This document shows, one piece after another, positions 7,040 through 11,982 of a DNA stretch of 64,000 nucleotides. Each line of letters starts with the position of its first letter. Within the stretch, counting starts at the first letter, position 1. The notes beneath the pieces are model-generated. The model was not told the origin of the DNA. It saw nothing but the letters and a program-made list of their open reading frames with translations, and searched no databases. The translations under genes and the position numbers were made by a program. Source of the DNA: Escherichia coli (GTDB lineage: Bacteria; Pseudomonadota; Gammaproteobacteria; Enterobacterales; Enterobacteriaceae); the NCBI RefSeq assembly GCF_041886205.1, contig NZ_CP169029.1. One strand, given 5' to 3'.

Positions 7040-7210
7040 TTCCTGAACTTCAGAATCATCTTGCTGCTGCTTCGATTCAGCAAGGATAAAGGGTATGATA
7101 GTGAAAAGGGATAAAAGCATTGTCATCTGCGGCAGCTATGAGTAATGTTGGCCCTAACGAATAGCGGTTGCTTAAACGAATCCGACTCTCACATTATCAG
7201 GGGTATAAAA

Positions 7211-7540
7211 ATGGAAACTACCAAGCCTTCATTCCAGGACGTACTGGAATTTGTTCGTCTGTTCCGTCGTAAGAACAAACTGCAACGTGAAATTCAGGAC
7301 GTTGAGAAAAAGATCCGTGACAACCAGAAGCGCGTCCTGTTGCTGGACAACCTGAGCGATTACATCAAGCCAGGGATGAGCGTTGAAGCAATCCAGGGCA
7401 TCATCGCCAGCATGAAAGGTGACTATGAAGATCGCGTTGACGATTACATCATCAAAAATGCCGAGCTCTCCAAAGAACGCCGCGATATCTCCAAAAAGCT
7501 GAAAGCTATGGGCGAAATGAAAAACGGCGAAGCGAAGTAA
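7211..7540 (+). CDS. yeeX: DUF496 family protein YeeX
   Basis: 109 aa from internal ATG ([14 protein letters not shown]...); highly charged coiled-coil-like protein. Confidence 0.85.
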
Positions 7541-7640
7541 TTCCCGTTTTATTCAATGAGGGTTGCCCGGCAACCCTCATTGCTCATTGATTCTTATCTG
7601 TGTATCACCGTCATCATTCTCATCTGAGAACCAATCGAAA

Positions 7641-7860
7641 TTAACAACAGCCTTCTTCTGTATGCAGCAAGGCAAAAAGTTCTGTAACTCCATTGTTATT
7701 AACTGCACTGGTTACTAACACGTTGTGCGCTCCAGCTTCCCGTAACCAACTTTTCACCAAAGATATTTGTTCCATGCTGGCTAAATCTGCTTTGGTTACT
7801 ACTCCAATGACCGGGTGATTCATGGCCCGGTAGGGCGTTTTTACCTCTAATTCCTGCTTC
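7641..7860 (-). pseudogene. EutP/PduV-like GTPase C-terminal fragment (yoeF-like remnant)
   Basis: C-terminal about 70 aa (...VIGVVTKADLASMEQISLVKSWLREAGAHNVLVTSAVNNNGVTELF...) resembles the EutP/PduV family; no N-terminal domain; upstream part of the track ORF is antisense to the IS66 remnant. Confidence 0.5.
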
Positions 7861-7861
7861 A

Positions 7862-8053
7862 GCGCTGAGATTCCTGCTTGTTGCCGGAAAAGCAGGCACC
7901 TGCCGTCTGAACGGTATCGATCCGGAAGCGTATCTGCGCCATATTCTGAGCATACTGCCGGAATGGCCCTCCAACCGTGTTGACGAACTCCTGCCATGGA
8001 ACGTAGTTCTCACCAATAAATAAGCGTCAATACGGTGCTCCGTTGACGCTTAC
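7862..8053 (+). mobile_element. IS66-family transposase 3' remnant including the terminal repeat (yoeD-like)
   Basis: Translation ...GIDPEAYLRHILSILPEWPSNRVDELLPWNVVLTNK* matches IS66 TnpC C-termini; ends with ...CGTTGACGCTTAC, resembling the IS66 right inverted repeat. Confidence 0.6.
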
Positions 8054-8437: not shown

Positions 8438-8632
8438 TTACAGCAACTGGTGAGGGCTGGCATAAGTTGCCGGTGTTTCGGTAGAGTCACGGTCATCCAC
8501 CACGCGGAGTGAATAACCTTTTTCAGCGGCCTTATTAATCAGTTCAGTGATATTAACACCATCAATGTCAACGACAATGTGCCCCATATCCAGCGCCTGT
8601 ACGTTAACGCTGTCGGCTTCCAGTGTCATCAT
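8438..8632 (-). CDS. Hypothetical 64-aa protein in the prophage-remnant segment (possibly YeeW/YpjJ-like)
   Basis: ATG with GGAGG 4 nt upstream; acidic protein MMTLEADSVNVQALDMGHIVVDIDGVNITELINKAAEKGYSLRV...; sits where yeeW would be by synteny but I cannot confirm identity. Confidence 0.45.
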   Translation of the reverse strand: MMTLEADSVNVQALDMGHIVVDIDGVNITELINKAAEKGYSLRVVDDRDSTETPATYASPHQLL

Positions 8633-8756
8633 TTCGCCTCCGGATACTTACCCAGGGTAATGTTATTTACCGTTCTGTAATTGTCGCGGGTCATCAGGCC
8701 GGTCGCCCTGCGAGCCCGGAGGATATCGATGCTGTTTATTAACTGAGAGCGGGTAT

Positions 8757-9460
8757 GGGCGCTGCTTCGCAGACAGGCAGAACTTGATGGTATGCCTGCG
8801 ATCAATGCCAAACGTGTTTACCGGATCATGCGCCAGAATGCGCTGTTGCTTGAGCGAAAACCTGCTGTACCGCCATCGAAACGGGCACATACAGGCAGAG
8901 TGGCCGTGAAAGAAAGCAATCAGCGATGGTGCTCTGACGGGTTCGAGTTCTGCTGTGATAACGGAGAGAGACTGCGTGTCACGTTCGCGCTGGACTGCTG
9001 TGATCGTGAGGCACTGCACTGGGCGGTCACTACCGGCGGCTTCAACAGTGAAACAGTACAGGACGTCATGCTGGGAGCGGTGGAACGCCGCTTCGGCAAC
9101 GATCTTCCGTCGTCTCCAGTGGAGTGGCTGACGGATAATGGTTCATGCTACCGGGCTAATGAAACACGCCAGTTCGCCCGGATGTTGGGACTTGAACCGA
9201 AGAACACGGCGGTGCGGAGTCCGGAGAGTAACGGAATAGCAGAGAGCTTCGTGAAAACGATAAAGCGTGACTACATCAGTATCATGCCCAAACCAGACGG
9301 GTTAACGGCAGCAAAGAACCTTGCAGAGGCGTTCGAGCATTATAACGAATGGCATCCGCATAGTGCGCTGGGTTATCGCTCGCCACGGGAATATCTGCGG
9401 CAGCGGGCTTGTAATGGGTTAAGTGATAACAGATGTCTGGAAATATAGGGGCAAATCCAG
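8757..9460 (+). mobile_element. insD: IS2, 5'-truncated (insD C-terminal about 230 codons plus right terminal repeat)
   Basis: ORF 8792-9448 matches IS2 InsD (…[22 protein letters not shown]…SDNRCLEI); in-frame homology begins about 8757 after a stop; IS2 right end TGGATTTGCCCCTATATTTCCAGACATCTGTTATCACTTA present in reverse complement at 9421-9460. Confidence 0.85.
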
Positions 9461-9792
9461 CCACGAATGCGGATTTGTTTACGGCCTGCCAAGGAGTTGT
9501 CTGTTATCTCTACTCCGGGGATGTCCTGCAAATTATCGGCTATGGAGGCATTGGTGGAGTTCTGCAATGTTTGTTGGTCAATAACCTGTATAGTCGCCGG
9601 GCTTTCCCAAAGGTTGCTTGCCGAACGATTCGTGGTCACGACGAGCGTCTCTTCGTTGCTGATTTTTGTTTCTGAAGAAGTTGCGGTTGCAGTAGAAACT
9701 ATCCCAGAAATGCATAATGACAGAGTGGAAAGGATATAAATTCGACAAGGTATATTATATAACATTTCATCCCTCATTAATACAAAGTACAA
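9461..9792 (-). pseudogene. yoeA: TonB-dependent outer-membrane receptor N-terminal (plug) fragment interrupted by IS2 (yoeA-like)
   Basis: Minus-strand translation ...ETLVVTTNRSASNLWESPATIQVIDQQTLQNSTNASIADNLQDIPGVEITDNSLAGRKQIRIRG is a TonB-box/plug region; reading frame runs into the IS2 end. Confidence 0.7.
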
Positions 9793-9822
9793 ATGATTGC
9801 TGTAATGATAATTATTTTCATT
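9793..9822 (-). promoter_or_regulatory. Fur box at the promoter of the disrupted TonB-dependent receptor
   Basis: AATGATTGCTGTAATGATAATTATTTTCATT closely matches the Fur consensus GATAATGATAATCATTATC. Confidence 0.6.
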
Positions 9823-9971
9823 TATGTTCTCATATATCTATAATTATTGTCATCTTCATAAATTGTAAATATCAAACATTTTTGACCTTAATCATGTTTT
9901 TTGATAGATATTTTACGACTGAACATATCCGTCGTTTCCTCTGACTCGTGTCAGTCGGTCTCTGGTTGTAT

Positions 9972-10010
9972 CCACGGACCGCACTCTTGACATAAGAGTG
10001 CGGTCCGTGG
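9972..10010. repeat. Perfect 17-bp inverted repeat with 5-nt loop
   Basis: CCACGGACCGCACTCTT-gacat-AAGAGTGCGGTCCGTGG; no flanking T-run on either strand. Confidence 0.9.
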
Positions 10011-11436
10011 AAAACGGAGTTGAAAAAATGGTGTCTGAAAGAAGGTACCATCATTGTGATGACAAATACTTTGGCGTGGATAATGTAATTAATTGCTGAA
10101 ATTGACCGTATATGCGGTAAGACTCATATCAGTACCAGGTCCGGTTAATTGCTGATACTAATATAAACTTTTTACAAAAGGATGAATGCAGAAGGTTACT
10201 CTAATGGCCAGAGTGATGACAATGATGGTCAGACGTTGACCTGCAGAAACTGCATTTTAATTGGTCTATAAAGTCTGCAAGAGGAATCAGGGTCAGATCA
10301 GTGAGTCTTATCGCGGCCCGAAGCTATGACTGAAAGAAGGCTGGATACAGAATTGCAACAATTTGGCAATGTCAGAACACAGAAGCTTTGCAAGCAGGTG
10401 AAAGGTTATGTCTAGCAAAAGGAGTATATCAGAATATATCTACTGATGTACAAAACACAACAATAGCTTCATGATATATAAATACGTGATGACGAGTGGT
10501 ACTCCGCATGGTTATTTAACTTCTCAGCACCACTAATGATCCTGAGCAACTTCGTATTTGGGCCATTACCATGGAGTAGAAAGCTGTGTCTGAGAATGCA
10601 GAATTTGAGAAAAGAATTCGCTTTCTTGGAGAGCTTCTGAAAATGGCACGCTAACAACGTTTTGTTAAAAAATGTGAATCACTTGCCGGGGCTGCATTTT
10701 CTATTCGAGGAGAATGTTGACGTAGATATTACAGAAATCTCAGCGCATCAGGATAAACTGCTACCTTAGGTCAACCACCAAAAGAAAATACAATACGTCC
10801 AGTTTGTATGCCTTTAATAACACATCTTCTAAATGTTGAAGAATTATCCCGCCTGCTGAAGAACGTTGCTCTGAGTGTGATAAACCTTTTTATTCTTGAT
10901 GATGTCAGCGAGAAGATGGAATATATCCCCGACTGGGTCGTGGTTACCCGGTTAAACATCTGGTGGCGCTAATAAATCTGGCAAGTCACATTCTGTTGAA
11001 TGCTGTGACAGTGCCTTACCGAGAGAGCGAAATTGTGGTGTTCTAGTGCATAGTCGCCACCATTCCGGATAATTCTATTACGTTGTTTTACAAGTTCTTT
11101 TACAGCGCAGATCTGTCGCTGACGTTGAATCAATAGCCTGGATTTCAGAACACAATGCCCGTTTGCTGGTTGTTCCGGCAGTAGCATTAATTCATTATCT
11201 GAATGAAATGTGTCAATCCACAGAAACCGCTGTCAATGACGCATTTTGTCGGACGTTAACACGAGAAAGTCTGGCTATTCCGTAATGCCATCTTATTTCG
11301 TAATGGATTGAGAATGCTGGATTTTTAATTATATTACGCGCAGTATTAATCGCGTAAATGTTTTGCGGTCAGCAACGGTGGGGGATCCATTGTTCTGTTC
11401 AATGAATACCATCATACATTTGAATCAGGAGTCGGT

Positions 11437-11982
11437 ATGATGATTTTGGTGACGGGGGGCGCACGGAGCGGGAAGAGTCGCCACGCAGAGGCGCTTATTG
11501 GGGACTCTTCACAGGTTCTGTATATCGCTACCTCGCAAATCCTTGATGATGAGATGGCTGCACGGATAGAACATCATCGGCAAGGCCGCCCGGAGCACTG
11601 GCGCACAGTGGAGCGCTGGCAACATCTTGATGAATTAATTCATGCAGACATTAACCCGAATGAGGTTGTGTTGCTTGAATGCGTTACCACAATGGTGACT
11701 AATCTGTTGTTTGATTATGGCGGCGATAAAGACCCTGATGAATGGGATTATCAGGCGATGGAACAGGCGATTAATGCTGAGATTCAGTCGTTGATTGCTG
11801 CCTGCCAACGTTGCCCCGCAAAGGTTGTATTAGTGACTAACGAAGTGGGAATGGGGATTGTGCCGGAGAGTCGTCTGGCACGACATTTTCGTGATATTGC
11901 CGGGCGGGTAAATCAGCAGTTGGCCGCTGCGGCAAATGAAGTATGGCTGGTGGTTTCGGGTATTGGAGTAAAAATCAAATGA
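11437..11982 (+). CDS. cobU: Adenosylcobinamide kinase / adenosylcobinamide-phosphate guanylyltransferase
   Basis: 181 aa, P-loop GGARSGKS; first gene of cobUST; contains a Chi sequence GCTGGTGG. Confidence 0.92.

Follow-up and report, generated by a model that had tools for sequence, protein, structure and literature searches.

A perfect 18-bp inverted repeat beside yoeA/hma of Escherichia coli is an RNA stem-loop at a strong transcript 3' end

Introduction

RNA hairpins without a U-tract are poor terminators for the RNA polymerase of E. coli, and the loops of REP elements are sites in which IS1397 inserts. Stable stem-loops that lack a U-rich tail, lie directly upstream of steady-state 3' ends and shield the RNA from PNPase and RNase II have been described (Dar and Sorek 2018, NAR 46:6797). 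The element analysed here, a perfect palindrome located beside the yoeA/hma receptor gene of E. coli, is of an ordinary kind, and is not a recombination or repressor site. Two independent 3'-end maps place RNA ends there, so that in vivo the palindrome is present as an RNA stem-loop at a strong 3' end. It had not been described as such before, although its 3' end already appears in two public data sets and elements of this kind are familiar.

The palindrome and its predicted fold

The window, i.e., the whole 64,000-nt stretch of DNA that was analysed, contains at 9971-10011 an inverted repeat of 41 nt in total, whose two arms of 18 nt each are 100% complementary and are separated by a 5-nt spacer:

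9971-9988, + strand: left (5') arm, TCCACGGACCGCACTCTT
9989-9993, + strand: spacer or loop, GACAT, the point of IS2 insertion in strain KE51
9994-10011, + strand: right (3') arm, AAGAGTGCGGTCCGTGGA

An earlier note on this DNA, made from the letters alone, had reported a perfect inverted repeat of 17 bp; the repeat is indeed perfect and its stem is one base pair longer per side (18 bp), about twice the usual length of the stem in intrinsic terminators. It exceeds in length all other perfect inverted repeats of the window, the next longest measuring 14 nt, and a search of the window with the 17-mer arm, no mismatch being allowed, returned only the two positions of the palindrome itself; with up to three mismatches, shuffled sequences gave 0.13 matches on average. 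We estimate at ~1e-5 the chance that 64 kb of sequence contain a short-looped hairpin of 18 perfect base pairs.

Folding of the flanks on both strands, a check that the earlier note had proposed, yielded strong structures in either case: in a 131-nt context the + strand RNA folds with -58 kcal/mol (z = -6.8) and the - strand RNA with -51.4 kcal/mol (z = -7.3), none of 200 shuffled sequences folding as well on either strand. On account of the length of its arms, of its uniqueness in the window and of its fold compared with that of the shuffles, the palindrome is real and far above chance expectation. In the predicted fold of the + strand RNA a G.U pair within the spacer closes a 3-nt loop and brings the stem to 19 bp, and the hairpin is prolonged at its base:

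9955-10023, + strand: predicted basal extension of the hairpin, 9955-9964 pairing with 10015-10023 in both the MFE and the centroid fold

This extension would sequester the GGAG at 10016-10019. A perfect 5-bp hairpin, CTGACTCGTGTCAG, is found at 9941-9954, 17 nt upstream of the palindrome and in the same predicted transcript.

A terminator scan reported nothing at the palindrome on either strand because neither strand has a T-run after the stem; the sequence 3' of the stem, GGAAAACGGAG, contains fewer than the ~5 or more U within 8 nt that are taken as the criterion. The earlier assertion that this is not a classical intrinsic terminator is thus right as far as form is concerned, the U-tract being absent, and the hairpin nevertheless defines a 3' end. 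An Rfam scan of 8500-11800 (E <= 10) produced only chance hairpin matches, with no family reaching its gathering threshold; the best matches were of the generic hairpin sort, with mir-5444 at 21.5 bits against a threshold of 90 and E = 0.59.

Genomic setting

The window is a piece of the E. coli chromosome corresponding to the reverse complement of K-12 around cobU, and the 601 bp surrounding the palindrome agree at 99.8% with those of numerous strains, among them K-12 MG1655 and O157:H7. Window coordinates equal 2078400 minus the U00096.3 coordinate, a relation that was derived from sequences printed in two published tables and calibrated with the printed thrL and asnU sequences. The palindrome lies ~180 bp upstream of a pseudogene and 1.4 kb before cobU:

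9373-9792, - strand: yoeA, TonB-dependent receptor pseudogene, N-terminal fragment cut by IS2

The IS2 that interrupts yoeA is recognised by its InsD ORF at 8792-9448. The counterpart of yoeA in Nissle 1917 and further B2 strains (hma) is intact and encodes 715 aa resembling the haem receptor PhuR along the full length; we take this intact receptor to be Hma, the haem receptor of uropathogens (c2482 of CFT073).

On the + strand, ~1.4 kb without supported genes separate the palindrome from cobU-cobS-cobT on its right, and in this interval the RefSeq annotation places an IS4 fragment and a cbi remnant. Ten stop-to-stop frames of 9900-11420 had no NCBIfam match and no credible Pfam match, and neither a regulator or recombinase gene nor a recognisable remnant of one was found in the same interval. 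A published gene table assigns the K-12 pseudogene yoeH (G0-16656, 159 nt) to 2068261-2068419, i.e., window 9981-10139, so that this label overlaps the right half of the palindrome. On both strands of 9981-10139 no open frame was found under the label; yoeH is named a transposase pseudogene in one paper, and no similarity to transposases is detectable in the same 159 nt.

Elsewhere in the window, yeeX/tmaR (7145-7540, + strand) and its perfect 14-bp hairpin (7554-7582) adjoin the remnant of the yeeP GTPase (7641-7997, - strand). About 8.1 kb of the CP4-44 element of MG1655 (flu to yoeF) are missing from the window, as is the IS5 copy that K-12 carries near cobU; the strain is therefore K-12-like and not MG1655.

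Promoter and Fur box

Upstream of the palindrome two overlapping signals were recognised:

9815-9844, + strand: sigma-70 promoter TTTTCA-18-TATAAT ('yoeH' promoter), from a promoter scan, 10/12 matches
9801-9819, strand not assigned: core box of the cluster of Fur sites at yoeA/hma, 15/19 consensus matches by eye

The promoter is divergent from yoeA/hma and the Fur box overlaps its -35 hexamer. By genomic SELEX with the RpoD holoenzyme the same hexamers were assigned to 'yoeH' (44.55 min) as its constitutive RpoD promoter, with an H-NS flag (Shimada 2014, PMC3946193); the same work lists a yoeG promoter, TGTACA-17-CATGAT (window 10447-10475), and a cobUST promoter, TTGAGA-16-TATATT (window 11308-11335). 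From the promoter match and from the binding of polymerase in vitro we infer a transcription start near 9851, which would put the hairpin at about +120 to +160. As to the Fur sites, the yoeA cluster, with 27.4 bits and 12 sites in 95 bp, is the strongest predicted in the genome and its binding by Fur was confirmed by gel shift (Chen 2007, PMC2189734); the coordinate given for it, 2066611 in U00096.2, corresponds to about window 9812.

Four clustered positions within 9801-9860 distinguish the B2-type haplotype from that of the K-12 type. In the B2 type the -35 sequence TTTTCA is replaced by TTATCA and the -10 sequence TATAAT by TGTGAT; thus the B2 strains, having an intact hma, combine a better Fur box with a worse + strand promoter, whereas the strains with the pseudogene have a strong divergent promoter. 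As judged from the hexamers, TGTGAT should weaken the promoter in B2 strains, so that the transcript bearing the hairpin may be haplotype-specific.

Published RNA ends and transcription beyond the hairpin

The palindrome coincides with ends that are present in published maps:

10006-10018, + strand: published RNA 3' ends (Adams 2021, supp. 1; TRS, supp. Data 2 and 3)

The Term-seq data of Adams 2021 (PMC7815308) contain a 3' end at 2068394 (-), corresponding to window 10006 and therefore lying inside the 3' arm, which is classed as 'orphan' and beside which the sequence of this hairpin is printed; the position occurs three times in a file spanning three growth conditions, with scores of 122,542 and 280,326 among the rows listed. 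These are higher than the scores of neighbouring mRNA ends, in one sheet than that of the yeeX mRNA end. The TRS data (2023, PMC10687069) have a peak at 2068393 (window 10007), also inside the 3' arm, and peaks at 2068382/2068383 (window 10018/10017), which fall 6-7 nt after the stem; the hairpin itself is printed there with -36.6 kcal/mol and a 'Max U-tract' of 2. In the Adams 2021 and TRS 2023 listings no 3' end was found on the opposite strand at the palindrome. A 'strong RNA structure' had been among the candidates of the earlier note, and these Term-seq and RNAtag-seq ends on the window + strand bear it out. The RNA that ends at the hairpin is an abundant, unnamed transcript beside yoeA/hma.

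Further signals lie downstream:

10485, + strand: weak Rho-termination region (Adams 2021, PMC7815308, supp. 2: 2067915 (-), score 1.79, p = 7.8e-5)
10423-10452, - strand: promoter-like site for an antisense RNA to yoeH, from a promoter scan

The Rho region at 10485 is on the strand of the hairpin RNA, ~470 nt downstream of the hairpin, and the published maps also list 3' ends of this strand near 10324 and near 10587; some transcription therefore passes the hairpin. On the opposite strand, an antisense RNA to yoeH that starts ~200 nt upstream and is ended by Rho at iRAP#6850 was reported to be visible solely in a mutant of RNase III, since it forms a duplex with the sense transcript of yoeH (Magan 2019, PMC6847712). 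The Rho region listed at 2068161 (+), i.e., window 10239 (-), with a score of 4.0 (Adams 2021, PMC7815308, supp. 2) fits this antisense RNA. Between 10002 and 10450 the strands are asymmetric, the + strand being G-rich (C/G 0.41-0.85) and the - strand RNA consequently C-rich, which fits the published Rho-dependent antisense end at ~10239 (-). Two inverted matches, 10047-10063 / 10213-10229 (15/17) and 10114-10126 / 10302-10314 (12/13), are found downstream of the palindrome; they are un-nested, the first is marginally above chance by a rough estimate, and both fall within the region of overlap of the published sense and antisense RNAs.

Small open reading frames

Just downstream of the hairpin lies a short frame that had already attracted attention:

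10028-10099, + strand: 23-aa ORF, MVSERRYHHCDDKYFGVDNVINC, ATG at 10028, GGAG at 10016-10019, 8-nt spacer

The earlier note had placed this 23-codon ORF, with a GGAG ribosome binding site, 12 nt downstream; the GGAG is present, the distance of the ATG from the arm being instead 17-18 nt. In the predicted fold the GGAG is paired in the basal extension of the hairpin and the ATG lies within the next small hairpin. As to the conservation of the frame, whose examination had been recommended, both the 23-aa form and a 33-aa form starting at GTG are absent from a collection of 15 billion proteins, and the two haplotypes differ in the 23-aa ORF by one synonymous and one non-synonymous change. The mapped 3' ends being at or before the ribosome binding site, the abundant RNA lacks this ORF; apart from the ribosome binding site nothing speaks for the ORF, and we find no reason to assume that it is translated.

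The description of the palindrome as ORF-free is accurate in the sense that no ORF with family support is present and inaccurate in that a 60-aa ORF of the - strand (9872-10054) runs across it. This ORF is a 'hypothetical protein' in many E. coli genomes (e.g., ECP_1993 of strain 536), forms a cluster of 36 members, lacks support from any protein family and probably reflects an error of gene calling.

Distribution, variation and insertions

A 51-nt query with the palindrome at its centre matched 2755 of 5426 complete E. coli genomes, 2211 of them over the full length, and the palindrome has been lost in about half of the genomes of the species. A search elsewhere in this and other genomes, which the earlier note had advised, returned a single E. 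coli locus only; the two 'places' per genome that such a search yields arise because the palindrome matches its own sequence on either strand. It is therefore not the interior of a known repeat family, which the note had named as a refuting finding. No copy was found in phage genomes or viral contigs, and the plasmid matches consist of four E. coli records of 0.18-4.9 Mb, sizes that suggest chromosomal or mis-assigned DNA. A metagenome scan with the arm gave 78 loci, in which all two-arm matches have E. coli flanks and the single-arm matches are either chance occurrences of the 17-mer in unrelated contigs, mostly from soil, or E. coli copies disrupted by IS3. Upstream of hma orthologues at 15 loci (66-78% amino-acid identity) of seven genera, namely Kluyvera, Citrobacter, Raoultella, Enterobacter, Klebsiella, Providencia and Izhakiella, no comparable hairpin was found at that position, and the Fur-box region is all that these loci share with the upstream DNA of E. 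coli. The palindrome is thus confined to E. coli and, given this distribution, is neither a member of a repeat family nor a conserved control region of hma.

The K-12-like and B2-like haplotypes differ at ~10 of 690 positions around the palindrome and at none within 9845-10057; since only ~0.6 substitutions would be expected in the hairpin, this identity is uninformative as to selection. The sole population variant found, C9982T, occurs in 5/5 sampled genomes of the 98% class, which probably represent one lineage because all share one receptor allele. C9982T keeps a U.G pair in the + strand RNA and creates an A.C mismatch in the - strand RNA, a weak hint that the + strand RNA might matter.

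Insertions have struck the palindrome more than once. In O26-type strains, amounting to several hundred genomes, an IS3 copy ends (…GGGTAGGATCA) right next to position 9979, the sequence to the left having been replaced, whereas strain KE51 carries a complete IS2 in the loop with the target duplication TGACA. The break of homology at 9978/9979 is the end of IS3 and thus reflects insertion into the palindrome and not an att junction. The 41-bp palindrome (9971-10011; loci L006, 5648-7045, and L002, 5950-6040) was struck independently by these two IS3-family elements and may be a hairpin or cruciform hotspot for their insertion.

Some origins were considered and discarded. Nothing identifies the palindrome as an IS or transposon end or as the scar of a junction, IS2 and IS3 having inserted into it with their own ends; an origin from a mobile element is contradicted by the lack of any match in phages or viruses and by plasmid matches limited to the four E. 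coli records; and membership of REP/BIME, ERIC or MITE families, which are defined by many copies, is at odds with the finding of one locus per genome.

How the 3' end is formed

The explanation that we favour, with a probability of roughly 0.6, is that a U-tract-less RNA stem-loop sets or protects 3' ends, these arising through exonuclease trimming back to the hairpin. Transcription of the window + strand (the minus strand of K-12) would begin at the sigma-70 'yoeH' promoter within the Fur-box cluster, and the palindrome, ~120-160 nt into the transcript, would fold into its 18-19-bp stem-loop and fix the steady-state 3' end. Longer transcripts would be ended or cut downstream of the hairpin, candidate events being the weak Rho site at ~10485, RNase III acting on the sense/antisense duplex at ~10240-10440 and other endonuclease cuts; exonucleases would then trim in the 3'-to-5' direction until stopped at the hairpin, the product being an abundant RNA of ~155-165 nt. 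The structure, its occurrence as a single copy at one locus and, from the literature, polymerase binding at the promoter and the RNA 3' ends are shown; both the start of transcription and trimming, as opposed to termination, are steps that we infer. The effect of the hairpin may be incidental rather than selected because the element is confined to E. coli and resides in decaying, horizontally acquired DNA. Against trimming stand the weakness of the nearest Rho region on the same strand (score 1.79) and the location of the 10017-18 cluster, whose distance of 6-7 nt from the stem is that expected for release at a true terminator. Moreover, the ~450 nt downstream are G-rich on the + strand (C/G 0.41-0.85), so that a rut-like C>G tract is missing, contrary to the pattern of Dar and Sorek. 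A double cut of the hairpin by RNase III is disfavoured, no 3' end having been reported in the 5' arm.

For these reasons, namely the G-rich downstream sequence, the weak Rho region and the ends at release distance, a non-canonical factor-independent terminator or attenuator is retained as the main rival, unlikely as we judge it to be. The long GC-rich hairpin would in this case stop RNA polymerase 6-8 nt past the stem, end most 'yoeH' transcripts and insulate the downstream DNA and cobUST. The ends at 10017-18 are at the canonical distance of 6-7 nt, the peak is far stronger than the downstream 3' ends, no rut-like tract follows and the hybrid at the release point (GGAAAACGG) has four weak rA:dT pairs; yet the U-tract is absent, the longest U run being 2 (TRS table, PMC10687069), transcription reaches at least 10485 and the dominant Adams peak at 10006 is inside the stem, resembling nibbling rather than release. 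The poor termination at U-tract-less hairpins by the E. coli polymerase, which is established knowledge, likewise speaks against it. A different proposition, somewhat doubtful but to be reckoned with, is that the palindrome is a functionless accident, e.g., a template-switched quasi-palindrome or an IS scar, and that the 3' ends are a by-product of spurious transcription of foreign, H-NS-bound AT-rich DNA. It accords with the confinement to E. coli, with a stretch made of pseudogene fragments (the IS4 fragment, the cbi remnant, 'yoeH' and 'yoeG'), with the loss of the palindrome from about half of the genomes without obvious consequence and its disruption by IS3 or IS2 in others, with the degraded promoter of B2 strains and with the H-NS flag of the promoter region (Shimada 2014, PMC3946193). 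The perfect 18-bp match in both haplotypes argues against drift, but weakly, as only ~0.6 substitutions are expected; furthermore, such an accident concerns origin and selection, not mechanism, and is compatible with trimming back to the hairpin.

Two further readings attribute a dedicated function to the locus. That the ~155-165-nt RNA is an unannotated E. coli-specific small RNA, with the hairpin as its terminator or stabiliser, acting in cis (on hma/yoeA or by insulating cobUST) or as a regulator in trans, is improbable. Such an RNA would be made divergently from hma, from a promoter within the strongest predicted Fur-box cluster of the genome; it is encoded in decaying foreign DNA, and the B2 strains with intact hma have a changed -10 in its promoter. 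Still more remote is a site acting at the DNA level, whether as the operator of some hma/yoeA regulator or as a remnant of recombination or attachment at the edge of the CP4-44/hma island, even if the dyad symmetry is perfect, the palindrome is ~180-220 bp upstream of the hma start and a large group of genomes shows a break of strain-to-strain homology at 9978/9979. This breakpoint is the end of an IS3 copy in the left arm, the hma orthologues of the seven other genera keep the Fur box without the palindrome, no phage, viral contig or true plasmid was found to carry it, and 9900-11420 holds no regulator or recombinase gene or remnant. To our knowledge, the half-sites of known operators are far shorter than 18 bp. 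The recombinase or repressor site put forward in the earlier note accordingly finds no support, there being no such gene nearby and no conservation with hma in other genera, nor does the relic attachment site, its breakpoints being IS3 and IS2 insertions and the element being absent from phages and mobile elements.

Comparison with known systems

If the favoured explanation is true, it changes little: one unusually long example is added to the 3'-end stem-loops without a U-tract, and an 'orphan' Term-seq peak of E. coli K-12 is explained. The analysis also draws attention to an abundant unnamed transcript next to a virulence-associated receptor gene under Fur control and to a palindrome that displays independent strikes by two IS3-family elements.

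Like the class described by Dar and Sorek, the palindrome gives a stable stem-loop without a U-rich tail or an upstream A-tract, with precise 3' ends at or just after the stem and with transcription going on beyond it. Unlike that class, it has a stem of 18-19 bp and about -37 kcal/mol, much longer than typical, it is followed by G-rich and not C-rich sequence, the weak Rho region being 470 nt away, and it is found ~120-160 nt into a non-coding or pseudogene transcript and not at the 3' end of a gene. With canonical intrinsic terminators it shares a GC-rich hairpin and one cluster of 3' ends 6-7 nt after the stem, differing from them in the lack of a U-tract, in a stem about twice the usual length and in the existence of read-through transcripts. 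The REP/BIME elements, which are imperfect to perfect palindromes, resemble it in the capacity to block 3' exonucleases and in having an IS3-family element in the loop, whereas the present palindrome is single-copy and has no sequence relationship to repeats of the window or of E. coli genomes. Finally, the yeeX/tmaR hairpin (7554-7582), with its perfect 14-bp stem, weak U-tail and published 3' end at 2078989, also marks a strong 3' end, but it follows a real gene, whereas the palindrome follows a leader-like RNA only.
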